20,000 bases of DNA from an uncultured virus (IMG/VR IMGVR_UViG_3300033388_001820) (Duplodnaviria; Heunggongvirae; Uroviricota; Caudoviricetes), in IMG/VR virus record IMGVR_UViG_3300033388_001820; one strand, given 5' to 3'. Below, piece by piece: positions 769 to 16,895 of this stretch. Below the pieces are notes generated by a model that saw only the letters and a list, made by a program, of their open reading frames with translations, searched no databases and had not been told where the DNA came from. Every line of letters starts with the position of its first letter. Positions within the stretch are counted from its first letter, which is position 1. The translations under genes were made by a program, and so were the position numbers.

Positions 769-960
769 ATGAGCTATCACAGCCAGACACGCACCGAGTA
801 TCTGATCGGCCCGAAGGGTGGACCAGCGAAGACGGTGCAGATCACTCACCGTGTCAAGCGTGTCGTAACACACAGTGAACCGCAGGTTCTGTTCACCGAT
901 CCGAAGTCAAAGAAGCAGAAGCTTCTGTCGAAGAAGGAACACACGGTCACCATCAAGTAA
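769..960 (+). CDS. small basic hypothetical protein
   Basis: AGGAGA RBS before ATG 769; ends 5 nt before tRNA-Glu. Confidence 0.7.
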   Translation: MSYHSQTRTEYLIGPKGGPAKTVQITHRVKRVVTHSEPQVLFTDPKSKKQKLLSKKEHTVTIK

Positions 961-965
961 TATTT

Positions 966-1043
966 GCCCCGTTGGTCTAGTTGGCTTAGGACGCCTGATT
1001 CTCAGTCAGGAGGACACCGGTTCGAACCCGGTACGGGGTACCA
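966..1043 (+). tRNA. tRNA-Glu(CUC)
   Basis: Cloverleaf; anticodon arm CCTGA-TTCTCAG-TCAGG; TTCGAAC T-loop; CCA encoded. Confidence 0.95.
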
Positions 1044-1050
1044 GACACTT

Positions 1051-1126
1051 TCCAGAGTAGCTCAGTCGGCAGAGCGCCAAGCTGTTAACTTGGATGTCGT
1101 AGGTTCGAACCCTACCTCTGGAGCCA
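1051..1126 (+). tRNA. tRNA-Asn(GUU)
   Basis: CCAAG-CTGTTAA-CTTGG; TCCAGAG/CTCTGGA acceptor; G73; CCA encoded. Confidence 0.95.
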
Positions 1127-1190
1127 AGAGTGGAACCGGGAGACGCGCTAAACTGGGAGCGCCCCTCCAGCAGGGTACCGGTTCTGCTCT
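1127..1190 (+). ncRNA. unidentified structured RNA (three-way junction, potential kissing loops)
   Basis: 13-bp closing stem AGAGTGGAACCGG/CCGGTTCTGCTCT (2 G-U) enclosing GCGCT-AAACTGGG-AGCGC and CCCT-CCAGC-AGGG; lies directly between two tRNAs. Confidence 0.6.
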
Positions 1191-1197
1191 GTTACAC

Positions 1198-1272
1198 GTA
1201 GCGGTGCCCGAGTTGGCCTAAGGGGTCTGGTTGCAACCCAGAATTGCGTCGGTTCAAATCCGACCCGCTACT
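1198..1272 (+). tRNA. tRNA-Cys(GCA)
   Basis: GTAGCGG/CCGCTAC acceptor, U73, TCTGG-TTGCAAC-CCAGA; no CCA. Confidence 0.93.
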
Positions 1273-1276
1273 CTGA

Positions 1277-1350
1277 AGGGCAGTAGCTCAGCGTGTTAGA
1301 GCGACGTACTTATCATACGTGCGACGTGGGTTCAAATCCCACCTGCCCCA
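1277..1350 (+). tRNA. atypical tRNA-Ile(UAU)
   Basis: ACGTA-CTTATCA-TACGT anticodon arm; GTGGG-TTCAAAT-CCCAC T-arm; A1:C72 mismatch, C37, no GG in D-loop. Confidence 0.75.
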
Positions 1351-1354
1351 CTAT

Positions 1355-1435
1355 GCGCTTGTGGTGGAAAGGAAGACACAGGGAGCTTAAGCCTCCCTGC
1401 CGTAAGGCGTGAGAGTTCGAATCTCTCCAGGCGCA
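1355..1435 (+). tRNA. tRNA-Leu(UAA)
   Basis: GGGAG-CTTAAGC-CTCCC; long variable arm GCC-GTAA-GGC; A73. Confidence 0.92.
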
Positions 1436-1441
1436 CAACAT

Positions 1442-1519
1442 GGTTCATTAGCTCAGCCCGGTAAGAGCAGCGTCCTGATACGACGAAGGTCACTGGTTCA
1501 AATCCAGTATGAACTACCA
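1442..1519 (+). tRNA. tRNA-Ile(GAU)
   Basis: CGTC-CTGATAC-GACG; GGTTCAT/ATGAACT acceptor; CCA encoded. Confidence 0.93.
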
Positions 1520-1527
1520 TTACATTT

Positions 1528-1613
1528 GCCCAGGTGGCGGAATTGGCAGACGCGCCAGGCTTAGACCCTGGTATCCGTAGAAGGGTGTAGGGGTTCGAGT
1601 CCCCTCTTGGGCA
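1528..1613 (+). tRNA. tRNA-Leu(UAG)
   Basis: CCAGG-CTTAGAC-CCTGG; long variable arm; Leu-type D-arm GGCGGAATTGGCAGACGC. Confidence 0.94.
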
Positions 1614-2273
1614 CTAAAAGGTGTAGCCGTACAAATCAATATCCTGCTCATACAGGTCAGCGATCTTCGCACGAGTAACATCATTGTAATACTCACGGTA
1701 GTGACCGTGTTTCGAAGCGTTGACTCTAGGAACGTCACCGTCATTCAACAACCCCACCTTGTCCAACACGGAAGTCAAGTCTGTGTTGATCGACTCTACC
1801 TTGCCAACGAAGTCAACCATCTGCTTGCCGTCATGATGAGTGTACAGATGTCCAGGGGCGCTGTGATAAGCTACCACCGGGTGCTGCATGGAGAGATTCT
1901 CCAAGTCCATAACAAACTCATCAAAGGTCAAGCGGCTGAACTTCTCATCCTGATCGGCCAGGTATGTGTAGCATGAAACGAGGCGATCCCACGGGTTACG
2001 AACAAACGAAAAGGAAAACCAGTTATCCCATTGAGACACAATCCCTGCTGTAGCGACAGGCCAACCAGAGAAAGGTGCTTCATCCTCCCCAACGTTCTTC
2101 TCATCCTGTCCACGATAGATAAGCTGTCGCAAACGGAGTCGACTAAACAGAATCCTGCTAGCTATCAGAGTCCCGCCAGCCTTGTTGCAACGAACGTAAA
2201 TCAGTTCAGGACCGGGATGGAACAACGTGATCTTGTTGTGTAGGTTGTTCAAGAAATTCAAAGTCTCACTCAT
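1614..2273 (-). CDS. sulfotransferase family 2 (Sulfotransfer_2-like) protein
   Basis: IYVRCNKAGGT (5'-PSB-like loop), FSFVRNPWDRLVSCY (3'-PB), DFVGKVESI, and terminal LYEQDIDLYGYTF typical of this family. Confidence 0.85.
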   Translation of the reverse strand: MSETLNFLNNLHNKITLFHPGPELIYVRCNKAGGTLIASRILFSRLRLRQLIYRGQDEKNVGEDEAPFSGWPVATAGIVSQWDNWFSFSFVRNPWDRLVSCYTYLADQDEKFSRLTFDEFVMDLENLSMQHPVVAYHSAPGHLYTHHDGKQMVDFVGKVESINTDLTSVLDKVGLLNDGDVPRVNASKHGHYREYYNDVTRAKIADLYEQDIDLYGYTF

Positions 2274-2286
2274 ATGGTGCCGATGA
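2259..2286 (+). promoter_or_regulatory. candidate sigma-28 (WhiG/FliA) promoter, probably leaderless transcript of 2293 ORF
   Basis: CAAA-N16-GCCGATGA versus consensus TAAA-N15/16-GCCGATAA; ATG follows 6 nt later with no RBS. Confidence 0.45.
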
Positions 2287-2292
2287 TATCAT

Positions 2293-2508
2293 ATGAAGTG
2301 GGTAACGATCTTGGCGATCGAGAACAAAATTCCGTACATCAAGATGAATGGCCAGACCCCTCCATGTTTTACCTGCAATGACAACGAATATGGTACACCG
2401 GTTTGCAGATGTAAAGCTCCGAGTAACTGGGTGTACACTCACGAGATTTCTGATATGCTAAGATTAGCAAGGTACGGGAAGTATCCCGACTGGTTTATAA
2501 AGGAGTAA
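2293..2508 (+). CDS. small Cys-containing hypothetical protein (possible Zn finger)
   Basis: CxxC...CxC; divergent from the sulfotransferase. Confidence 0.6.
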   Translation: MKWVTILAIENKIPYIKMNGQTPPCFTCNDNEYGTPVCRCKAPSNWVYTHEISDMLRLARYGKYPDWFIKE

Positions 2509-2511
2509 ACG

Positions 2512-2664
2512 ATGGGAAGATGCGAACATCCAGAATGTGAAGTGTCAGCGCACCGACGAATTTTCGTTGGTGAAGAGGTGTACGAATACTGTCTAGAACA
2601 TTACGACGTGGCGACTGCTGTTCAACAAAACAGGAGACCACAATGGGAACCAGACAACTCTTGA
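2512..2664 (+). CDS. small hypothetical protein (50 aa; CxxxxC...CxxH possible Zn finger)
   Basis: Hand-translated MGRCEHPECEVSAHRRIFVGEEVYEYCLEHY...; AAGGAG RBS upstream. Confidence 0.65.
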   Translation: MGRCEHPECEVSAHRRIFVGEEVYEYCLEHYDVATAVQQNRRPQWEPDNS

Positions 2665-2669
2665 AACTT

Positions 2670-2752
2670 GCGTCTGTGGTGGAATGGCAGACACGCCAGT
2701 CTGAGAGGCTGGTGCCCGGAAGGGCGTGTGGGTTCAACTCCCACCAGACGTA
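2670..2752 (+). tRNA. tRNA-Leu(GAG)
   Basis: CCAGT-CTGAGAG-GCTGG; long variable arm GCCC-GGAA-GGGC. Confidence 0.93.
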
Positions 2753-2756
2753 CTAT

Positions 2757-2831
2757 GCGGGTGTAGCTCAATGGCTAGAGCCTCAGTTTTCCAAACTGAT
2801 GATGAGGGTTCGATTCCCTTCACCCGCTCCA
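2757..2831 (+). tRNA. tRNA-Gly(UCC)
   Basis: GCGGGTG/CACCCGC, U73, TCAGT-TTTCCAA-ACTGA; CCA encoded. Confidence 0.95.
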
Positions 2832-3013
2832 TGTTAGACAATTACATCGCTCATTACGTTGCCCCTGGGCCGACTCCGTTGTTCTATTCGCTAGTCGAAT
2901 ATCTAGTGTTTGGTCTGTGTGATTACAGTGACACTACCGACATCGCTATCCGATACGAAGAAGGCGACCATAATGGTTCAAAAGTCATGCCAAGAAATTG
3001 GGTAACGCTATGA
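2831..3013 (+). CDS. small hypothetical protein ending ...VMPRNWVTL
   Basis: ATG shares the A of the tRNA-Gly CCA; ATGA overlap with the next ORF. Confidence 0.6.
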   Translation: MLDNYIAHYVAPGPTPLFYSLVEYLVFGLCDYSDTTDIAIRYEEGDHNGSKVMPRNWVTL

Positions 3014-3237
3014 TTGAGTACAACATCGAGAAGCCTACCGAGCCTGAGTTTTTTCAGGAGACTGGCAACTGGTATCGGAGGCGATGGTCGCTCAGTATGT
3101 ACCAGAACGTCGTGCTGCTTGAAACGGACGGACCGATCAACAGAGACGGGGACCTCACGTTGATCTCGTACTGGGATAGCACCAATTCTTACAAGACAGA
3201 AAGACACCGTTTGCCTAACTCTTGGGTGTGGGCATGA
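3010..3237 (+). CDS. small hypothetical protein ending ...RLPNSWVWA
   Basis: ATGA-coupled to the upstream ORF. Confidence 0.65.
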   Translation: MIEYNIEKPTEPEFFQETGNWYRRRWSLSMYQNVVLLETDGPINRDGDLTLISYWDSTNSYKTERHRLPNSWVWA

Positions 3238-3250
3238 CGATGAGTAATGT
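3216..3250 (+). promoter_or_regulatory. candidate promoter for the Gly/ncRNA/Thr cluster
   Basis: TAAC-N16-GACGATGA (sigma-28-like, 3216-3243) overlapping TTGGGT-N17-TAATGT (sigma-70-like, 3222-3250). Confidence 0.35.
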
Positions 3251-3257
3251 AATACAC

Positions 3258-3330
3258 GGGTTAGTAGCTCAATTGGTAGAGTACAACCTTGCCAAGGTTG
3301 ATGTTGCCGGTTCAAGTCCGGTCTAGCCCT
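3258..3330 (+). tRNA. tRNA-Gly(GCC)
   Basis: GGGTTAG/CTAGCCC, U73, CAACC-TTGCCAA-GGTTG; no CCA. Confidence 0.93.
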
Positions 3331-3333
3331 CGC

Positions 3334-3467
3334 TGGTTGCAGGGAGAATATTCGGAACCAGACGCCCCAGGGCAAGTAGCCCTTGGGTATTTCGATGCCC
3401 CTCACCCAAGTTTTTCCTCTGGTGAAAGCGCAGGCTGAGGCACCCCGTTGACTTATCCCTGCAACCA
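3334..3467 (+). ncRNA. unidentified multi-branched structured RNA (134 nt)
   Basis: Perfect 12-bp terminal stem TGGTTGCAGGGA/TCCCTGCAACCA; inner hairpins AGGGC-AAGTA-GCCCT and GGGTAT-TTCG-ATGCCC; fills the whole gap between two tRNAs. Confidence 0.65.
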
Positions 3468-3473
3468 TGCTAT

Positions 3474-3549
3474 GCTTCGGTAGCTCAGTTGGAAGAGCGT
3501 CGCTCTCGTAAAGCGAAGGCCGCGAGTTCAAATCTCGCTCGAAGCTCCA
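3474..3549 (+). tRNA. tRNA-Thr(CGU)
   Basis: TCGCT-CTCGTAA-AGCGA; CCA encoded. Confidence 0.94.
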
Positions 3550-3564
3550 AGGAGATTAGGATGA

Positions 3565-3726
3565 ATGGATGATACCGATCAAGAGTTCTGGAGTGTGGTC
3601 AACCACAGCCTCACCGACGAGGACGACGGGAGGCCCACTCGGTGGGAGATGGCCGCTTGGTTCGTCACCTTCGTGGTGTTGATCGGCCTGCTCGTTATTG
3701 GTCCCATCTGGGTGGTGTTCCTATGA
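3565..3726 (+). CDS. small membrane protein (53 aa)
   Basis: Hand-translated MDDTDQEFWSVV...WFVTFVVLIGLLVIGPIWVVFL; AAGGAG and AGGA upstream; one hydrophobic C-terminal helix. Confidence 0.65.
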   Translation: MDDTDQEFWSVVNHSLTDEDDGRPTRWEMAAWFVTFVVLIGLLVIGPIWVVFL

Positions 3727-3787
3727 GAGAAGAACGTCCGTCGACGCGCAGTGTAAGCAGAAGGAGTTAAGTCGACTATGAGTGAGT

Positions 3788-3926
3788 GATCCTGATACAT
3801 TATGCGGTTACACCTTTGATGTCTTGCATGACCTGGGATGCGCGGTATAGCAACCTCCTGGCCAGACCCCTTCAAGTGGAAGGAAGAGGGATCAAAGCGC
3901 AGTATCAGGTCTTCCACTAGGGAAGA
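3788..3926 (+). ncRNA. unidentified long irregular stem RNA upstream of tRNA-Thr(UGU)
   Basis: Nested helices CCTGATAC/GTATCAGG, TGCG/CGCA, CTTTGAT/ATCAAAG, inner CCTTC-AAGTG-GAAGG, followed by TCTTCC-ACTAG-GGAAGA hairpin. Confidence 0.5.
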
Positions 3927-3939
3927 GAAGAAAGTACAT

Positions 3940-4015
3940 GCCGAATTAGCTCAGTGGCCAGAGCAGTGCTCTTGTAAAGCGAAGGTCCTCGGTTCGACTC
4001 CGAGATTCGGCTCCA
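3940..4015 (+). tRNA. tRNA-Thr(UGU)
   Basis: GCCGAAT/ATTCGGC; loop CTTGTAA; CCA encoded. Confidence 0.93.
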
Positions 4016-4188
4016 TGAATATGAGATACGAAAAATACTGGGGAGGCGCTGCTGACGGCGGCTTCTGGAACTGGACGGCTCAGCGACCTGGGCAAGAGAA
4101 GTGTATTGGCATGGGCTGGTATCGTTGGACAGCCTGGCTCAAAGCATGGCGTGCCACAAGGAACGCCCCTTACATGGAAGAATGGTAA
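4015..4188 (+). CDS. small Trp-rich hypothetical protein
   Basis: ATG shares the A of the tRNA-Thr CCA (alternative ATG at 4021); MNMRYEKYWGG... Confidence 0.6.
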   Translation: MNMRYEKYWGGAADGGFWNWTAQRPGQEKCIGMGWYRWTAWLKAWRATRNAPYMEEW

Positions 4189-4191
4189 ATC

Positions 4192-4416
4192 ATGGCAAGT
4201 TTTCACACACCCTCAGAACTACTCGCTTATGGAGATTTCATCTACGACAAGTTTCTCACTGTGACCGAGGTCACAACCCTTGAAGGAACAGGCGTTATCG
4301 TGGCCGGTAGGCGCGGAGGCACAGGCAAAGCAGAAACGCACACCTTTGAGACCGACGACAAAGTGTGGATTCATCGCACCAACCACATCTTCGACTGTGG
4401 ACCTGATGCCCAATGA
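4192..4416 (+). CDS. small hypothetical protein
   Basis: Starts 3 nt after the upstream stop; ATGA-coupled to the next ORF. Confidence 0.65.
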   Translation: MASFHTPSELLAYGDFIYDKFLTVTEVTTLEGTGVIVAGRRGGTGKAETHTFETDDKVWIHRTNHIFDCGPDAQ

Positions 4417-4568
4417 TGGACGCGTTTGACGATTACATGCTTCGCATGTACCCTCCACCAATCGACCCTGACAAAGAACGTCTACGCAGGGACATGAACA
4501 AGGCTCGACACGCTGCATTGGATGCGGGTGAGCCTGACCCTTTCGTCATATACATCAAGGTACCGTAG
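4413..4568 (+). CDS. small hypothetical protein (51 aa)
   Basis: Hand-translated MMDAFDDYMLRMYPPPIDPDKERLRR...; ATGA-coupled; TAG stop is nt 8-10 of tRNA-Phe. Confidence 0.55.
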   Translation: MMDAFDDYMLRMYPPPIDPDKERLRRDMNKARHAALDAGEPDPFVIYIKVP

Positions 4569-4634
4569 CTCAGCAGGAAGAGCGCTGGCGTGAAGCCCCA
4601 GAGGTCGTTGGTTCGACTCCGACCGGTACCACCA
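4559..4634 (+). tRNA. tRNA-Phe(GAA)
   Basis: GGTACCG/CGGTACC; CTGGC-GTGAAGC-CCCAG (C31:C39 mismatch, G32); CCA encoded. Confidence 0.88.
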
Positions 4635-4643
4635 CTCCAACCA

Positions 4644-4652
4644 TGCTATACT
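4644..4652 (+). promoter_or_regulatory. extended -10 promoter for leaderless recA
   Basis: TGcTATACT ending 6 nt before ATG 4659; no Shine-Dalgarno. Confidence 0.6.
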
Positions 4653-4658
4653 ATCTCC

Positions 4659-5627
4659 ATGAGCATTGATCAAGTACAAAAAAACCTAGAGAAGAAGTTC
4701 GGCAAGGGTGCCGTCGTTCGCATGAACGACAAACCTCAAGACATTGAAGTAATCCCGACAGGGAACATAATCCTCGACATGGCTCTAGGTGTTGGCGGCT
4801 ACCCGCGAGGTAGAATCGTTGAAATCTTCGGACCTGAATCCTCTGGCAAGACAACGCTGGCTACACACGCAGCGGCTGAAGCACAGAAACTCGATTTGAA
4901 CGTGGCCTACATCGACGCAGAGCACGCTATTGACCCGACATACACCGAAGCGTTGGGCGTAGACCTTAACGCTGTCCTGCTCAGTCAGCCTGACAGCGGC
5001 GAGCAGGCTCTTGAGATCGCTGACGAAATGGTCAAGTCAGGAGAGTTCGGATTGATCGTAGTGGACTCTGTAGCGGCTCTCACGCCTCGTGCAGAGCTAG
5101 CAGGTGAGATGGGAGACTCTCATATGGGGCTGCAAGCACGGTTGATGGGGCAGGCTCTACGCAAGATGCGTGGCACCGCCAACACAACTGGTACGACGCT
5201 CATCTTCGTCAATCAGATTCGTGAGAAGATCGGGGTCATGTTCGGGTCGCCAGAAACTACACCGGGTGGACGTGCGCTCAAGTTCTTCTCCACTATCCGT
5301 CTCGACATCCGTCGCATCGGTGCGATCAAAAACGGTGTTGAGATCATGGGCAACGAGACACGAGTCAAAGTCGTCAAGAACAAGGTGGCACCGCCGTTCA
5401 AACAGGCCGAGTTTGACATCATGTATGGTCGTGGTGTGTCGCAGTCAGGGTCGATCATTGACCTCGGCGTGGCAGAGGACTTGATCTTGAAGTCCGGCGC
5501 GTGGTACACTATCGGAGAAGAGCAGGTGCAGGGTCGTGAGGCTGCCAAAGATTCGCTAGAATCTCAGCCTGATCTGATGGCGGAACTGTACGAGAAGCTA
5601 GCCTACGAGGACGAGACAGGTGACTGA
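4659..5627 (+). CDS. recA: recombinase RecA (322 aa)
   Basis: GPESSGKTT Walker [61 protein letters not shown]. Confidence 0.98.
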
Positions 5628-5805
5628 ATTCCATTTAAGAGACGGACGTCGACGTAAGGCCACTTTGCGCACCGGGAATAGTCATAGCAAACGAAGCTAC
5701 AAGAAGGCCCGAAGCAAAAGCGAGAAACGTGACCGGGCAGAACAGAATGAGATCAGACAACTGAAACGTATTCTCAGAAACGAACAAGAAGCAAGGGACG
5801 TGTAG
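5620..5805 (+). CDS. small basic hypothetical protein
   Basis: GTG overlaps the recA end; Lys/Arg-rich; TAG stop is nt 8-10 of tRNA-Val. Confidence 0.6.
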
Positions 5806-5871
5806 CTCAGCAGGAAGAGCAGCGGTTTTACACACCGCAGGTCGTCGGTTCGAACCCGGCTACGTCCACCA
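5796..5871 (+). tRNA. tRNA-Val(UAC)
   Basis: GCGGT-TTTACAC-ACCGC; CCA encoded. Confidence 0.94.
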
Positions 5872-5882
5872 GAAAGGATTAA

Positions 5883-5897
5883 GTCCCCTTCGGGGGC
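5883..5897 (+). other. cUUCGg tetraloop hairpin in tRNA spacer
   Basis: CCCC-TTCG-GGGG between tRNA-Val and tRNA-His. Confidence 0.55.
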
Positions 5898-5902
5898 AAG
5901 TT

Positions 5903-5980
5903 GTGGCAGTAGCTCAGTCTGATTAGAGCGTCGGGTTGTGATCCCGAAGGTCGCGGGTTTAAATCCCGTCTGTCACCCCA
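5903..5980 (+). tRNA. tRNA-His(GUG)
   Basis: TCGGG-TTGTGAT-CCCGA; C73 and CCA; base -1 is T; T-loop TTTAAAT. Confidence 0.9.
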
Positions 5981-6010
5981 TCGCAAACAACAAGAAAGAG
6001 AGAAACACAC

Positions 6011-6247
6011 ATGTTGTGGTTCATTATTTTCTACCTAGTCATGATGGCAGTGTTCGCTCAGTGGATCATCATTCCCCTGTACTCCAACGAACACGGAATA
6101 CTTGAGATGCTCGCTCCTGAGACGCACGAAGAGTGGGAGCAGCAAACCAACACCGTAAAGACGGTCATCACTTTGATCGTCTCAGCCTTTTGGCCGCTCA
6201 TCGTTATTGGAACCGCCGTTGCGATGTTCCAGAAAGTCATCAGATGA
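6011..6247 (+). CDS. small membrane protein (two hydrophobic segments)
   Basis: Hydrophobic N- and C-terminal stretches, ...AFWPL... motif; ATGA-coupled to the next ORF. Confidence 0.7.
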   Translation: MLWFIIFYLVMMAVFAQWIIIPLYSNEHGILEMLAPETHEEWEQQTNTVKTVITLIVSAFWPLIVIGTAVAMFQKVIR

Positions 6248-6384
6248 TAGCACTACTGACAATCATCGCAGCGATACTGTTCGTGCGTGTTGCCGTTGAT
6301 GCTAATCGTCGTCGCGGATACGTCGCAAAGTTTGTAGTAGCCTTCGTGGTCGCGTGGGTTGTGCTCTTCCTTATGGGCATCTGA
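6244..6384 (+). CDS. small membrane protein (46 aa)
   Basis: MIALLTIIAAILFVRVAVDANRRRGYVAKFVVAFVVAWVVLFLMGI; ATGA overlap. Confidence 0.65.
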   Translation: MIALLTIIAAILFVRVAVDANRRRGYVAKFVVAFVVAWVVLFLMGI

Positions 6385-6394
6385 AAGGATAGAC

Positions 6395-7141
6395 GTGAAG
6401 ATAGGATTTCTTGGCGACGTACACGGTAGCCCCGGCTGGGTGAAGTGGGCGTTCGCAGAACTTGTGAAGCAAGGAGCTGAGATAATCGTTCAGCTAGGTG
6501 ACCTCATGTACTGGGAACACAAACCCGGTGGCAAGGAGTTCATCGACTACATCCAAAGCCTGTGCGACGAATACTGTATTGATTTCTGGTGGATTGATGG
6601 GAACCACGAGAACTTTGATTGGCTATACGACTATCCGCTTGATAGAAACGGGCGTAGACCTATCCGGCCGAACGTCATTCATCTGCCTCGTGGACATGCT
6701 TGGGAATGGGATGGCGTGAAGTTCCTAGCCTTCGGCGGATCATACTCCATCAACAAGGACATGCTTACCCCTGGTGACTCGTATTGGCCACAGGAGATGC
6801 CGACAGTACAAGAAGTCGACATTGCTCGTGCGGTTGGCAAAGTAGATGTCATGATCAGTCATGACGTGCCTGAAGGTGCGGACCTAGCGGATTTGTTAGG
6901 ACCGTCTTGGATGGTATTTGCTACGCATCCTGCCGAGTGTGGGATTGTACGAAGACGAGTACGGGACGTATGGGACATTGCACAACCGAACTGGCTTTTT
7001 CACGGGCACTATCATCGGAGGGCTAACAGTGTACTTGGTAGGACGCGCATCGTGGGCCTGGCTAACGAAAACACCGGACCCAATTCTATCTATCTTGCAG
7101 ACACCAATAGCCTACGTTCAGGGTTTGCTGGAACAATTTGA
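6395..7141 (+). CDS. calcineurin-like metallophosphoesterase
   Basis: GDVHG, QLGD, DGNHEN, ISHD, FHGHYH motifs; GAAAGGA RBS before GTG 6395. Confidence 0.92.
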   Translation: MKIGFLGDVHGSPGWVKWAFAELVKQGAEIIVQLGDLMYWEHKPGGKEFIDYIQSLCDEYCIDFWWIDGNHENFDWLYDYPLDRNGRRPIRPNVIHLPRGHAWEWDGVKFLAFGGSYSINKDMLTPGDSYWPQEMPTVQEVDIARAVGKVDVMISHDVPEGADLADLLGPSWMVFATHPAECGIVRRRVRDVWDIAQPNWLFHGHYHRRANSVLGRTRIVGLANENTGPNSIYLADTNSLRSGFAGTI

Positions 7142-7250
7142 TGACGCTCTCACTGCTGTTGACTACAGTGGTTGGGACGATTACTACCTCTACAATTTCG
7201 GTTTCCATCTCCCGATACCTAAAAACTGGGAGCCGGGGGTCGTGTATCTT

Positions 7251-7324
7251 GGTGGCGTAGCTCAGCAGGTTAGAGCAACGGGTTCATAATCCGTAGGTCG
7301 TTGGTTCAAATCCAACCGTCACTA
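7251..7324 (+). tRNA. tRNA-Met(CAU) elongator (Ile2 not excluded)
   Basis: ACGGG-TTCATAA-TCCGT; paired 1:72 (G-U); no CCA. Confidence 0.88.
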
Positions 7325-7331
7325 CTCTAAG

Positions 7332-7360
7332 TTGACAACGGCGTTATACCGTAGTACACT
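7332..7360 (+). promoter_or_regulatory. sigma-70/SigA-type promoter
   Basis: TTGACA-N17-TACACT. Confidence 0.8.
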
Positions 7361-7396
7361 AACACATGAGAACGCCATGCGGTTCATCTACTCTCG

Positions 7397-7431
7397 GTCG
7401 GGGGTCGAACCGTTACACGGTGGCCCCCGAC
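7397..7431 (+). other. GC-rich hairpin in leader of the fMet cluster
   Basis: GTCGGGGGTC-GA-ACCGT-TAC-ACGGT-GGCCCCCGAC. Confidence 0.6.
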
Positions 7432-7443
7432 ACACAATTTCGA

Positions 7444-7521
7444 TGCAGGGTGGAGCAGTCTGGTCAGCTTGCTTGGCTCATAACCAAGACGTCGTGGGTT
7501 CGAATCCCACCCCTGCCACCA
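7444..7521 (+). tRNA. initiator-like tRNA-fMet(CAU)
   Basis: U1:C72 mismatch, fMet-type D-arm TGGAGCAGTCTGGTCAGCT; CTTGG-CTCATAA-CCAAG; CCA encoded. Confidence 0.9.
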
Positions 7522-7576
7522 ACTTAGAAAGGCAACATGGAACTCAATATACCAGCCATCATTTTTTAACACACAC

Positions 7577-7651
7577 GGGGGTGTAGCTCAGCCTGGCTAG
7601 AGCATCTGCTTTGCAAGCAGAAAGTCGTGGGTTCGAATCCCATCTCCTCCA
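7577..7651 (+). tRNA. tRNA-Ala(UGC)
   Basis: G3:U70 pair; TCTGC-TTTGCAA-GCAGA. Confidence 0.93.
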
Positions 7652-7664
7652 CTTTTTACCACGC

Positions 7665-7749
7665 GGGGACGTGGCGGAATTGGCAGACGCGCTGGGTTCA
7701 AGCTCCAGTGAGATAATACCTCGTGAGGGTTCAAGTCCCTCCGTCCCTA
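7665..7749 (+). tRNA. tRNA-Leu(CAA)
   Basis: CTGGG-TTCAAGC-TCCAG; long variable arm; Leu-type D-arm. Confidence 0.93.
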
Positions 7750-7751
7750 CT

Positions 7752-7937
7752 ATGACGAAACTCACGCAACATCAACATCTAGGTTCCCGTATGCCAACTG
7801 TTGAATTTCATGAAGACAATTGCAATCTTTGGGCACATCAAGAAGGATGGATCTGTGGCATCGCTCATGAAGACAGTGGAGCATTGTGGCATGATCAAGT
7901 TTCTTCTCACGACCTAGCAAATTGGGAGTTCATATAG
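7752..7937 (+). CDS. small hypothetical protein ending ...HDLANWEFI
   Basis: ATG 2 nt after the tRNA-Leu discriminator (A-CT-ATG); MTKLTQHQHLGSRM... Confidence 0.6.
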   Translation: MTKLTQHQHLGSRMPTVEFHEDNCNLWAHQEGWICGIAHEDSGALWHDQVSSHDLANWEFI

Positions 7938-7942
7938 TCCGA

Positions 7943-8015
7943 GCCTTTGTAACTCAGCGGACAGAGTGGCAGGTTTCTACCCTGCTGGGCGTAGGTTCGA
8001 ATCCTACCAAGGGCG
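7943..8015 (+). tRNA. tRNA-Arg(UCU)
   Basis: GCAGG-TTTCTAC-CCTGC; GCCTTTG/CAAGGGC; no CCA. Confidence 0.92.
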
Positions 8016-8044
8016 CTAAGCAATTACCTACGAATGGAGAACTC

Positions 8045-8368
8045 ATGGAATACGGTTTCGAAACTGGTGAAGAACCAACCGAGGAAGAAATGGAGCAGAT
8101 GGAATCCGACTACGCAAAGTACGCTGGACAACAGATCGCTTACGTCGATCGACTCTATGATTTCGTGAACGGCTTGGACAAAGCACAGTTGGATGCGTTC
8201 CTGCAACTAACCAAACAGTTCGGAACGAGTCCTACTACGATCCAGTTCTGGTCAGGCTACTCCCGTGCCCTCAGGTACGCCAAGTTTGATGTGAACCCGA
8301 ACCCGTATGTACCGAAGCTGAATCCCGAAGATTTCATAGATAACGCTGAAACCGAAGAAGAAAACTGA
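8045..8368 (+). CDS. acidic hypothetical protein
   Basis: GGAG RBS before ATG 8045; the longer ORF-track start lies within tRNA-Arg region. Confidence 0.75.
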   Translation: MEYGFETGEEPTEEEMEQMESDYAKYAGQQIAYVDRLYDFVNGLDKAQLDAFLQLTKQFGTSPTTIQFWSGYSRALRYAKFDVNPNPYVPKLNPEDFIDNAETEEEN

Positions 8369-8412
8369 TATGCTCTAGACTAGATCCCGATACAACATAG
8401 GAGGTGGGTGAC

Positions 8413-8907
8413 ATGGGTGGAGTTCTGTTGCTGAATGCAACATATGAGCCAATGCGTGTCCTGCCTCTCAAGCGGGCTATCGTACTTGTGCTGCAAGAGA
8501 AGGCCGAGATCGTAGAAGACGAAGGCGGTGTGATCAGGTCTGAGAACCTGTCTATCACGCTACCAAAGGTGATCCGTCTGCTGTACTACGTGAAGATTCC
8601 GTACAGGAAGAAAGTGCCGCTCTCTAACAGGACCGTGCTTGTCCGAGACAAGTTCAAGTGCGCGTACTGTGGCCAGAAGGCAACTACAATCGACCACGTG
8701 TGGCCCAAGTCTTTGGACGGTGCCCACGACTGGACGAACGTTGTTGCAGCATGTCAGCCATGCAACCAGAAAAAGGGCAACCGGACTCTGGATCAGCTAG
8801 GTTGGACGTTGCCATTCAAGCCTGACAGGCCAACCACACGCAAGTGGGTTGTTGTCGAAAGGATTGAGAAGTCATGGGTCCCATATCTAGAGATGGCGAG
8901 CGCATGA
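8413..8907 (+). CDS. HNH endonuclease (actinobacterial VLLLNAxYEP family)
   Basis: VLLLNATYEP N-terminus; RDKFKCAYCG, TIDHVWPKS, WTNVVAACQPCNQKK; AGGAGGTG RBS. Confidence 0.93.
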   Translation: MGGVLLLNATYEPMRVLPLKRAIVLVLQEKAEIVEDEGGVIRSENLSITLPKVIRLLYYVKIPYRKKVPLSNRTVLVRDKFKCAYCGQKATTIDHVWPKSLDGAHDWTNVVAACQPCNQKKGNRTLDQLGWTLPFKPDRPTTRKWVVVERIEKSWVPYLEMASA

Positions 8908-8912
8908 TTGAG

Positions 8913-8953
8913 GGAGTTGGTCGGTGGGGGGCGCGTTCCCTGCCGACCTCTCC
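8913..8953 (+). other. strong hairpin (terminator or processing stem) between HNH gene and tRNA-Gln
   Basis: GGAG-TT-GGTCGGTGGGGGG-CGCG-TTCCCTGCCGACC-T-CTCC; no U-tract. Confidence 0.55.
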
Positions 8954-8957
8954 ACGA

Positions 8958-9032
8958 GCGGGTATAGCATAATTGGCAGTGCCGCGGGCCTTGGCCCCGC
9001 TAGTTCAAGTTCGAGTCTTGATACCCGTACCA
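8958..9032 (+). tRNA. atypical tRNA-Gln(UUG)
   Basis: GCGGG-CCTTGGC-CCCGC (C33); Gln-like D-loop AATTGGCA and short variable loop; G1:U72, A73; CCA encoded. Confidence 0.75.
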
Positions 9033-9199
9033 TGAAACAGTTCTACAGTTCACGATTCTACTCTTGGGCTACACGTGACGCCTACGGCATCAATTACAAC
9101 GCCGAGTACGCTTTGGTTCACGATGAGATCAGTGGCTTAACGTACATCAGTGTACACTCTATACCCGCATCATTACTCCCCAGAAACTGGGGCGGATAA
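9032..9199 (+). CDS. small hypothetical protein ending ...LLPRNWGG
   Basis: ATG shares the A of the tRNA-Gln CCA; MKQFYSSRFYSW...; overlaps the convergent gene by 27 nt. Confidence 0.6.
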   Translation: MKQFYSSRFYSWATRDAYGINYNAEYALVHDEISGLTYISVHSIPASLLPRNWGG

Positions 9200-13197: not shown

Positions 13198-13647
13198 TCA
13201 GTCCTCCACGAACTTACTCAGAGGGGAATGCTTGTCCCCATGCTCTTGTCTTCTAACCATCAAAACCAGGCAGGCTGGCTGCCACTTGCCTTTGTTAGAA
13301 TGTACCACATCGTGACACTCACGACAAAGGGTAATCAGGTTCTCTGCGAGATGCTTACCGCCTTGCGAACGATACAGGATGTGATGCACGTGCAGGTCGT
13401 TAGAAATGCCACACTTACGACACTTTCCACCGTCCGAAGCGATCACAGCGTCACGTAAACCCTCGGGCATCGGATTCTTGGCACGTTTGCGTTTGATCCT
13501 AGACCTCTTGAGAGGCCCCCTAACGGCCTGGAGGCTATTTTGCTTGTCCTTACGACAGTCCTCGCCGCAAAAGCTGCTGACGCCTGCACGGAGCGCCTCG
13601 TCCCTATCTATGTAGTCCCGACAGCTAGCACAGCGGACCTTAGGCAA
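13198..13647 (-). CDS. HNH endonuclease with N-terminal Cys motif
   Basis: CASC...FCGEDC; CRKCG...LHVHHI...GG...NLITLCRECHDVVH; GGAGG RBS before TTG 13647. Confidence 0.88.
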   Translation of the reverse strand: MPKVRCASCRDYIDRDEALRAGVSSFCGEDCRKDKQNSLQAVRGPLKRSRIKRKRAKNPMPEGLRDAVIASDGGKCRKCGISNDLHVHHILYRSQGGKHLAENLITLCRECHDVVHSNKGKWQPACLVLMVRRQEHGDKHSPLSKFVED

Positions 13648-13933
13648 AATTAGCCTCCACGAACGTGGCAATCTGCTCACCGAACAGCCCAAAGATGTCT
13701 ACTGGTCTGTTCTTGCGGAACAAAGCACGTCGCGGACGGTCAGTGAACCCACCCCACACGCCAATCCATTCTTCAGTATGCAACGAATAGTCCAAACAGT
13801 TAGCCTGAACCGGACAACGGATACATTTCTCGATGGCTTCGTCCTTGTGTGGATACAAGCCTTTGTCGTCAGGGTAGAAGATACCTGTGTCCTCTATCGT
13901 GCATATCCTGCGGGCAACCCAATCAGTCTCCAT
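13640..13933 (-). CDS. whiB: WhiB family Fe-S transcription factor
   Basis: W...C...FYP...A...CxxCPVxxxC...GVWGG; start at ATG 13933 (METDW). Confidence 0.92.
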   Translation of the reverse strand: METDWVARRICTIEDTGIFYPDDKGLYPHKDEAIEKCIRCPVQANCLDYSLHTEEWIGVWGGFTDRPRRALFRKNRPVDIFGLFGEQIATFVEANFA

Positions 13934-14936: not shown

Positions 14937-16895
14937 TTAGAACGGTTCTCTGTCAGTGTCAGTATAGTCCGGCAACCTACGTGCTGTCAAGTCCCCCACA
15001 GGAGCGTAACGCTGACCCACGAGAGACTCTTGGAAAGCTGCCTCATACTTCATCTTGTTCTTGTTCTGTTCCACCTCTTGTGAAGCGAACTTCTCCCACT
15101 TGGAGAGGGTCTTACCATCAGAAGGAACGATCGTTGTAGACAACGGAGCGAAGAGACAATTAGCTTCCTGTCCAGTGCCACCATGCCGTGACTTAGCGAT
15201 GTACAAATTGACCAACCCCCGCGACTCCATCAAACCCGCACCTGTCTCCAGCATGTCAGGCCGATAGTAAGTGAACACAAAGTCAGACGTTTCCTCAATG
15301 GCACCCGAATCGCGGGCGTCATCCATCGACGGACGCTGGCCCGCTTTGTTGCCACGAGACACCTGTGCCGGTACCATAATCCTGATACGGAACTCCTTCG
15401 CTATCTCTTTCAACATCATGATCGCTGCGGTAGTCCGTTCATAAGCGTCACCACGGAAGGCCCGAGCGAAATAGCCAAGATAGTCAACACCCACCATATC
15501 AGGCAACTCGCCCATGTCGGCAGCATACAACTCAAGGCCCTGACGGAACTCATCAGGAGTCACACGGTTCTTCTCTACCAAACGAATACGTGGACTCCAG
15601 AATTCCTTGGCGTCATTGCGGGCAAGCTCAGGGTCCTCGGTGCGCTCAAAGAACCTACGCACCTTCCAGGCACGGTCAGCCCACTCCGAAGCAGTCTGCT
15701 CCAGTGAGTACAGTAAGAACGTAGTCTCAGGACGCTGCCTTGAAATGTGTTCGAACGCCGACAAGATGTACGCCGTCTTACCGGCACCCGTCTTAGCCAA
15801 CACCGTCAACACCTGACCAGGAAGCATCCCCTTCTGCATAGCATTATCAATGTCAGGGAAACCGAACGGGATTTGTGTCCCCGGATCAGCCTGCTCAATG
15901 TCCCACCGTTCGAAAGCGAACTCAGGAGTGAGCAGAAACCCCGACGACTGAGACAGTAGCAGCTTCTGGAAAGCCTCAGCAGTGTTATCCTCGATCTGAA
16001 ACCAGTCAGAGACATCCATGTCGTCTTCGAAGTCAACGACCGTTGCTTTAGGGCCGAACTCCTTAGCTAGCTCAGTCGCAGCATTACGCCCAGCAGTGTC
16101 ACCATCAAACGCAATAGCGATCTTCGGAGCCATCTCGAAATATCCGGCCCACTCTTTCAGCTTCGACTTCCATGATGTAACGCCAGGGATGCCTACAGCA
16201 TGGAACCCGTTCTGCTCAGCGATGATCGCGTCGAATTCACCCTCACACACGACAAGCGTGCCAGCCACCTTGTACGTCGTGTCACTGTTGAACAGGAACA
16301 CACCCGCACCGGCAGGAGTCTTGTACTTCGCTGGTCCATCAAAGAAACGACCGCGAATTTGAACACACTTACCACCCCGGAAGTACGGGATCGTGACGGC
16401 ATTAGTGAAGAAGTCAGCGCCTCTCTCAGACATCAGTCCAGAAGCGATAATCTCATGTGTCTTGTAGCCCCTGGTCAGCAAATGAGCACGTAGGGAACCG
16501 TCTGCCCAGCCGATCTTAAATCGCTGGATTGTCTCTACTGAGAGTCCCCTGGCTTTCAACCACGACAACGCATCAAGGTTGTCCCCCAGTTTGCGTGCGT
16601 AGTAATCGGCTGCAATATCTAGGATCTCCGCCACAGCATCGGTAGGTTCTTCATCCTTGTTACCGAGTGGAGGGTCACCAAAGTAGCGGCGAAGCTGGTT
16701 TATGTTTCCAGTCTCACCACAACGCTTGCAGTCCCAAAGTCCATAATGATCCGAACTAGGATCGACGTTGACATACAGCCGACCCCGTTTGCTCGAATCT
16801 TCACCGTGAAAAGGGCAATGGACGTGCGCTTCACGCCCATCGCGCTTTACACGAGGAAACTTCTCGTTGAGATAAGCCTCAACGTCGAAGTCCAT
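14937..16895 (-). CDS. DNA primase-helicase fusion (CHC2 Zn finger, TOPRIM, DnaB-like helicase)
   Basis: CPFH...CKRC, VCEGEFDA, FDGD.AG, AKTGAGKT, YSLEQ, VDYL, AQVSR, RDSGAIEETSD, KSRHG. Confidence 0.95.
   Translation of the reverse strand: MDFDVEAYLNEKFPRVKRDGREAHVHCPFHGEDSSKRGRLYVNVDPSSDHYGLWDCKRCGETGNINQLRRYFGDPPLGNKDEEPTDAVAEILDIAADYYARKLGDNLDALSWLKARGLSVETIQRFKIGWADGSLRAHLLTRGYKTHEIIASGLMSERGADFFTNAVTIPYFRGGKCVQIRGRFFDGPAKYKTPAGAGVFLFNSDTTYKVAGTLVVCEGEFDAIIAEQNGFHAVGIPGVTSWKSKLKEWAGYFEMAPKIAIAFDGDTAGRNAATELAKEFGPKATVVDFEDDMDVSDWFQIEDNTAEAFQKLLLSQSSGFLLTPEFAFERWDIEQADPGTQIPFGFPDIDNAMQKGMLPGQVLTVLAKTGAGKTAYILSAFEHISRQRPETTFLLYSLEQTASEWADRAWKVRRFFERTEDPELARNDAKEFWSPRIRLVEKNRVTPDEFRQGLELYAADMGELPDMVGVDYLGYFARAFRGDAYERTTAAIMMLKEIAKEFRIRIMVPAQVSRGNKAGQRPSMDDARDSGAIEETSDFVFTYYRPDMLETGAGLMESRGLVNLYIAKSRHGGTGQEANCLFAPLSTTIVPSDGKTLSKWEKFASQEVEQNKNKMKYEAAFQESLVGQRYAPVGDLTARRLPDYTDTDREPF

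Follow-up and report, generated by a model that had tools for sequence, protein, structure and literature searches.

A 64-nt element fills a tRNA-sized slot in a phage tRNA array

The window analyzed here, a stretch of 20,000 nt from an uncultured virus, has 21 tRNA genes, every one of them on the + strand and identified identically by ARAGORN and by Rfam at gathering cut-offs. In the ARAGORN annotation, the first tRNA block reads Glu, Asn, a gap, Cys, Ile(UAU), Leu, Ile and Leu, with successive spacers of 7, 71, 3, 3, 5 and 8 nt; because the remaining spacers in the block measure 3–8 nt, the 71-nt gap between tRNA-Asn and tRNA-Cys is the sole one of tRNA size. Within this gap lies the element that is the subject of this work (1127–1190, + strand, 64 nt), whose first base adjoins the CCA of tRNA-Asn and whose last base falls 7 nt before tRNA-Cys, a placement in a tRNA slot that had been proposed, with the same end coordinates, in an initial annotation of the sequence. 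The upstream neighbor, tRNA-Asn (GTT; 1051–1126, +), is called by ARAGORN, scores 69.6 bits against the Rfam tRNA model and encodes its CCA at 1124–1126; the downstream neighbor, tRNA-Cys (GCA; 1198–1273, +), is called by both programs. The G+C content of the element is 64%, versus 52% for the window and 50–63% for the neighboring tRNAs. Further along the same block, tRNA-Ile(UAU) at 1277–1351 (+) sits beside tRNA-Ile(GAU).

A scan of the + strand from 960 to 1614 revealed neither a sigma-70-like promoter nor an intrinsic terminator, and without an internal promoter or terminator the element fits co-transcription with the tRNAs. The 7-nt spacer that separates it from tRNA-Cys (GUUACAC; 1191–1197, +) contains no CCA and no U-run; given this tail and the blank scan, we ruled out that the element is itself an intrinsic terminator.

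The genes interspersed with the array and around it are those of a phage. A RecA/UvsX-like recombinase (4590–5627, +), a metallophosphoesterase (6359–7141, +) and an HNH endonuclease (8404–8907, +) are embedded among the tRNA genes, and a second HNH gene lies at 13198–13692 (−). A sulfotransferase-like gene neighbors the element, and the window further encodes a sigma factor, a WhiB-like regulator, a primase/helicase (14937–16895, −), a Sak4-like protein and an exonuclease. The WhiB-like regulator suggests an actinobacterial host, and the source is a sediment phage that probably infects actinobacteria. The primase/helicase has hundreds of relatives at ~40% identity on metagenome contigs of up to 197 kb, while its matches in cultured phages do not exceed 26%, a distribution that suggests a large group of tRNA-rich phages that are as yet uncultured.

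The element folds into a closed three-way junction

RNAfold predicts for 1127–1190 a 13-bp closing stem that encloses two hairpins, with no anticodon arm, reproducing the architecture read from the sequence in the initial annotation. The 5′ strand of the closing stem P1 (AGAGUGGAACCGG; 1127–1139, +) is followed by the unpaired junction GAGAC (J1/2; 1140–1144, +); by hairpin P2 (1145–1162, +), with five base pairs (GCGCU/AGCGC, pair probability ~0.9) and an 8-nt loop, AAACUGGG, that includes CUGG at 1153–1156; by hairpin P3 (1163–1175, +), with four base pairs (CCCU/AGGG, pair probability 0.78–0.85) and the 5-nt loop CCAGC, in which CCAG occupies 1167–1170; by the unpaired UA of J3/1 (1176–1177, +); and by the 3′ strand of P1 (CCGGUUCUGCUCU; 1178–1190, +). 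The linker between P2 and P3 is 0 nt. P1 includes two wobble pairs (U5-G60 and G6-U59 in element numbering); its terminal pair has a pair probability of 0.72 and its other 12 pairs have probabilities of 0.97–1.0.

The minimum free energy (MFE) of the element is −31.4 kcal/mol, and the MFE structure accounts for 51% of the RNAfold ensemble. Compared with dinucleotide shuffles, the fold has a z of −3.06, with 2 of 200 shuffles folding as well; a z of −3 for one 64-nt stretch is significant, not overwhelming, and both the fold and the covariance model described below rest on one sequence. Adding the 7-nt tail to the element leaves the fold unchanged. The antisense strand reaches −27.9 kcal/mol (z −2.16); the tRNA-sense strand folds better because both G-U pairs of P1 turn into A-C mismatches on the opposite strand. 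The element is a stable, strand-specific fold that exactly fills a tRNA slot. An alternative inner hairpin, CUGGGAG/CUCCAG, was rejected at −22.8 kcal/mol versus −31.4 kcal/mol for the MFE fold. Within long precursors (660 and 236 nt) the MFE fold differs from that of the isolated element; we judged the MFE of a multi-tRNA precursor to be unreliable and gave this difference no weight.

The initial annotation described the element as a kissing-loop RNA. The loops are indeed complementary, CUGG (1153–1156) matching CCAG (1167–1170) with a duplex energy of −5.8 kcal/mol, but the proposed contact depends on this single 4-nt match, and among shuffled or random loops of 8 and 5 nt, a Watson-Crick match of at least 4 nt turns up in 3.2–3.4% of cases; when G-U pairs are allowed, the frequency ranges from 3.9% (shuffled) to 13.7% (random). 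Because ~3% is expected by chance and the match was also spotted post hoc, it is suggestive only. Moreover, with no linker between P2 and P3, structural reasoning favors end-to-end stacking of the two hairpins over a loop contact. We therefore regard a CUGG-CCAG contact that holds P2 and P3 side by side as possible, but doubtful.

The element matches no known RNA family

We compared the element with known structured RNAs, including those that the initial annotation had named as resembling it in topology. In agreement with that annotation, which had noted no match to their sequences, cmscan of 1100–1220 against Rfam at E ≤ 10 matched nothing but part of the tRNA-Asn end, leaving the element itself unmatched; no tRNA, purine aptamer, SRP, tmRNA or ribozyme family matches it at this threshold. 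At gathering cut-offs, Rfam finds nothing but the 21 tRNAs in the whole window, and at E ≤ 1 all the inter-tRNA gaps in 900–9100 are unmatched.

We rejected identification of the element as a tRNA. ARAGORN makes no call in 1127–1197, and the Rfam tRNA model has no match there at E ≤ 10. The relaxed and mitochondrial (armless) modes of ARAGORN likewise give nothing at default, -ps80 and mitochondrial default settings; at -ps60 and at -mt -ps80 they give only junk calls with malformed anticodons. In a cloverleaf test, the element has no anticodon arm with a 7-nt anticodon loop. A T-arm and T-loop are missing as well: what precedes the 3′ strand of P1 is a 2-nt junction, and the nearest hairpin loop is the 5-nt CCAGC. 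The element resembles tRNA (RF00005) in its size, its paired ends, the GG in its first hairpin loop and its position in a tRNA array; it differs from tRNA in lacking the anticodon arm and T-loop. The resemblance of the first arm to a D-arm, to which the initial annotation had pointed, proved superficial: its loop is A-rich with a GG, it has no T-loop partner, and ARAGORN is blank at -ps80 and in mitochondrial default mode.

Like the purine riboswitch aptamer (RF00167), the element consists of a closing helix and two hairpins whose loops could pair. The hairpins of the purine aptamer are 7 bp long, and its J2/3, of ~8 nt, forms the ligand pocket; by contrast, the hairpins of the element are 5 and 4 bp, its J2/3 is 0 nt, and it is not located upstream of a gene. 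The element shares with the SRP Alu domain a proposed pairing between two adjacent hairpin loops, but has no helix 5 or S-domain context, and no SRP family matches it at E ≤ 10.

Two possible origins were also considered and rejected. A MITE-like palindromic mobile element is not supported: the element is single-copy in the window, and neither the 836 kb of loci nor the collection scans yielded another copy; further, its ends show no target-site duplication, and GAGCCA and GTTACAC, the sequences that flank it, have no common repeat. With respect to derivation from a tRNA, the best local similarity among 108 tRNAs is 15 of 18 bases in the D-arm region of a tRNA-Leu, which lies within the shuffled range (score 21–22, versus a shuffled mean of 20.3, sd 2.3 and maximum 27) and falls on differing structural parts of the two RNAs.

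Relatives of the element were found only in closely related sequences

To search for relatives, we built a covariance model from the single element sequence and its fold (effective sequence number 1.27), which scores the element itself at 99.6 bits. The model finds no paralogue in the window, no match in 68 loci totaling 836 kb, and no match in 10 IMG/VR contigs, searched whole, from distant primase relatives; over five tRNA-array regions of those relatives and the T4 tRNA locus, its best score is 13.4 bits (E 0.33). The first three of four pattern scans of IMG/VR, including one in which the loops and junction were kept and the stems left free, returned 0 matches. The fourth, a relaxed loop pattern, returned 104 stretches, of which 80 were kept as loci and searched with the covariance model; the architecture is absent from the 80, where the best score is 15.4 bits and the matches are simple hairpins. 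A pattern scan of GTDB genomes, again with fixed loops and junction and free stems, gave 0 matches, and a primase scan of the same genomes found no relative.

Searches guided by neighboring proteins gave a similar picture. Neither RecA nor the sulfotransferase-like protein nor the primase retrieved a close relative from IMG/VR, and an alignment of 26 of the 120 primase homologues listed contains distant relatives only (identity ≤39%). The sulfotransferase-like protein retrieved 17 loci from JGI metagenomes at ≤40% identity, in which ARAGORN found 2 lone tRNAs and no array. In cultured phages, megablast of 900–1700 gave no match, blastn of 1100–1220 matched the tRNA-Asn part four times and otherwise gave a single 19-nt chance match (E 4), and tblastn identities reached at most 61% for RecA and 26% for the primase/helicase. 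Closer relatives of the primase were found at 88% (JGI; longest contig 34,954 nt), 77% (ENA) and 62% (Logan) identity.

Two contigs align to the element, one of them across its full length. A 387-nt contig from sediment run X3 aligns over 1047–1195, a span that takes in tRNA-Asn and all of the element; this alignment has 11 mismatches and 6 gap letters (~89% identity). A contig from run X2 covers 1145–1323 with 1 difference. In the X3 relative, the element is ~89% identical, versus ~88% for the neighboring coding DNA (1527–2331); because the element is as diverged as the coding DNA, this alignment shows its presence and no extra constraint. The element is for now a lineage-restricted singleton, and the suggestion in the initial annotation that it might represent a new ncRNA class has no basis, as the homologue searches gave nothing alignable. 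We found no published account of this element, nor of a phage tRNA array that houses a 64-nt RNA lacking an anticodon arm; the supplementary tables of PMC10690425, which treats tRNA-like candidates, might list a related motif.

Other RNAs occupy slots in phage tRNA arrays

That a few RNAs other than tRNAs are encoded in phage tRNA clusters is long established, the classic example being the species 1 and species 2 RNAs of T4. These RNAs, encoded by rnaC and rnaD, are matured together with the tRNAs and retain a tRNA-like acceptor and T-arm part; to our knowledge, their purpose is still unexplained. In the T4 annotation, rnaC (species 1, 139 nt) and rnaD (species 2, 119 nt) lie just after tRNA-Arg, the spacers measuring 1 and 6 nt. 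The element resembles them as a non-tRNA RNA that lies on the tRNA strand and abuts tRNA genes, with spacers of 0 and 7 nt; it differs in being half their size and in having no T-arm or T-loop. Homology to rnaC or rnaD was not detected, the covariance model with filters off over the T4 locus giving a best score of 10 bits (E 2.9). The element belongs to a known kind, the non-tRNA RNAs of phage tRNA clusters, with a fold that is unrelated and a size that is unusually small.

A second slot filler lies in the same array at 3332–3473 (+, 142 nt), between tRNA-Gly(GCC) and tRNA-Thr(CGU). It starts one base past the tRNA-Gly discriminator and ends 3 nt before tRNA-Thr, and its closing stem of 12+2 bp fills the slot; it folds at −57.3 kcal/mol (z −3.62), with 0 of 200 shuffles as good, and has no Rfam match at E ≤ 1.

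Fillers are also found in the tRNA arrays of two distant primase relatives, L153 (G001:C1:108000-122200) and L154 (G002:C1:22900-34300), which have 45 and 36 tRNA-model matches, respectively, and many strongly folded inter-tRNA fillers of 80–180 nt. Two of these (L153:880-961 and L154:4964-5087) display a T-arm-like GGTTCRAWTCC hairpin just within the closing stem, a sequence feature that suggests rewired tRNA-shaped RNAs.

A possible passenger RNA released by tRNA processing

Because the fold beats shuffles and its helix spans the gap from the CCA to 7 nt before tRNA-Cys, because 3332–3473 shows the same design of a closing stem that fills its slot, and because further support comes from the fillers of L153 and L154, from T4 rnaC and rnaD and from the X3 and X2 contigs, we favor, at about even confidence, a reading in which the element is a stable passenger RNA excised from a polycistronic tRNA precursor. 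It is reasonable to infer that its release is brought about by tRNA processing. The element would be transcribed within the polycistronic precursor and cut out by the enzymes that mature the neighboring tRNAs: its 5′ end would arise from a cut at the tRNA-Asn CCA or past it, and its 3′ end in two steps, with RNase P cutting at the start of tRNA-Cys and the 7-nt tail then being trimmed back as far as the stem. Since both ends would be locked in a 13-bp helix, close in length to the 12-bp acceptor/T stack of a tRNA, protection from exonucleases is expected, and the excised element may therefore persist as an RNA of 64–71 nt.

The same position could instead reflect a purely cis-acting structured spacer that guides or insulates processing, for example by providing a defined cleavage site that makes the 3′ end of tRNA-Asn or by preventing misfolding of the neighboring tRNAs, with the excised piece degraded and having no function of its own. 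The zero spacing between the CCA and the stem is consistent with such a role, as is the start of 3332–3473 one base after the tRNA-Gly discriminator; in addition, the X3 relative keeps tRNA-Asn and the element together, and pattern scans of IMG/VR and GTDB found no wider family with conserved loops. However, the other junctions of the block manage with a plain 3–8 nt, so that a 64-nt three-way junction exceeds the apparent need, and from what is known of bacterial tRNA maturation, a stem abutting the CCA would hinder rather than aid exonucleolytic 3′ trimming. We consider a solely cis-acting spacer unlikely. A neutral remnant is distinctly unlikely: the element would then be what is left of a tRNA gene after decay or rearrangement, or else a small palindromic insertion, and its structure would be unselected. 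The element is slot-sized and inside the array, its family was not found beyond close relatives, and it shares the 15 of 18 bases with the D-arm region of tRNA-Leu; but that similarity is within the shuffled range and on different structural parts, a decaying gene is not expected to retain 22 uninterrupted standard pairs, and the expectations for an insertion fare no better, with a single copy in the window and the scanned collections and no target-site duplication visible at the element ends. Nor does the fold of a G+C-rich spacer by chance account well for the locus, despite the reliance on a single sequence, the 2 of 200 shuffles that fold equally well and the antisense strand that also folds (z −2.16): the stem lines up precisely with the slot at both ends, the size of the slot is unusual for a compact block, and the element is kept in a relative of ~89% identity. 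We regard a chance fold as very improbable.

If the element is indeed an excised passenger, what the RNA might do is a more speculative matter. The initial annotation raised the idea of a decoy for tRNA-targeting defense proteins, which can be sharpened, as a long shot, into a pared-down imitation of the tRNA top half: once released, the RNA might conceivably engage or titrate a factor that recognizes tRNAs by their shape and is blind to the anticodon. On this improbable model, the 13-bp helix would replace the stacked acceptor and T stems, whose length in tRNA-Sec is likewise 13 bp, and the loop-joined hairpins would form a knob in place of the D-loop/T-loop elbow; RNase P and RNase Z would, just as improbably, take the element as a substrate, and the factor might be, for example, a host defense nuclease or a phage tRNA-repair enzyme.

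To the RNAs of phage tRNA clusters, the window adds a very small member, 64 nt long with neither an anticodon arm nor a T-arm, together with a 142-nt example from the same array, and in both the closing helix matches the extent of the slot exactly. At present, the 64-nt element is a well-placed, well-folded singleton. If relatives confirm the fold, it would offer a compact model for what tRNA-processing enzymes need in order to excise a non-tRNA, and also for the role of passenger RNAs in infection. PMC10264068, PMC11464382 and PMC11555353 reflect a growing interest in phage tRNAs as counter-defense.

Elsewhere in the array, the window carries two tRNA-Met(CAU) genes (7251–7325 and 7444–7521); either an initiator or a lysidine-type Ile tRNA could be encoded by one of them. 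The 118-nt gap between them (7326–7443, +) contains a strong G+C-rich hairpin (GUCGGGGG...CCCCCGAC) and, near its start, a TTGACA hexamer, with an overall z of −2.15; this gap could be a promoter followed by a structured leader.
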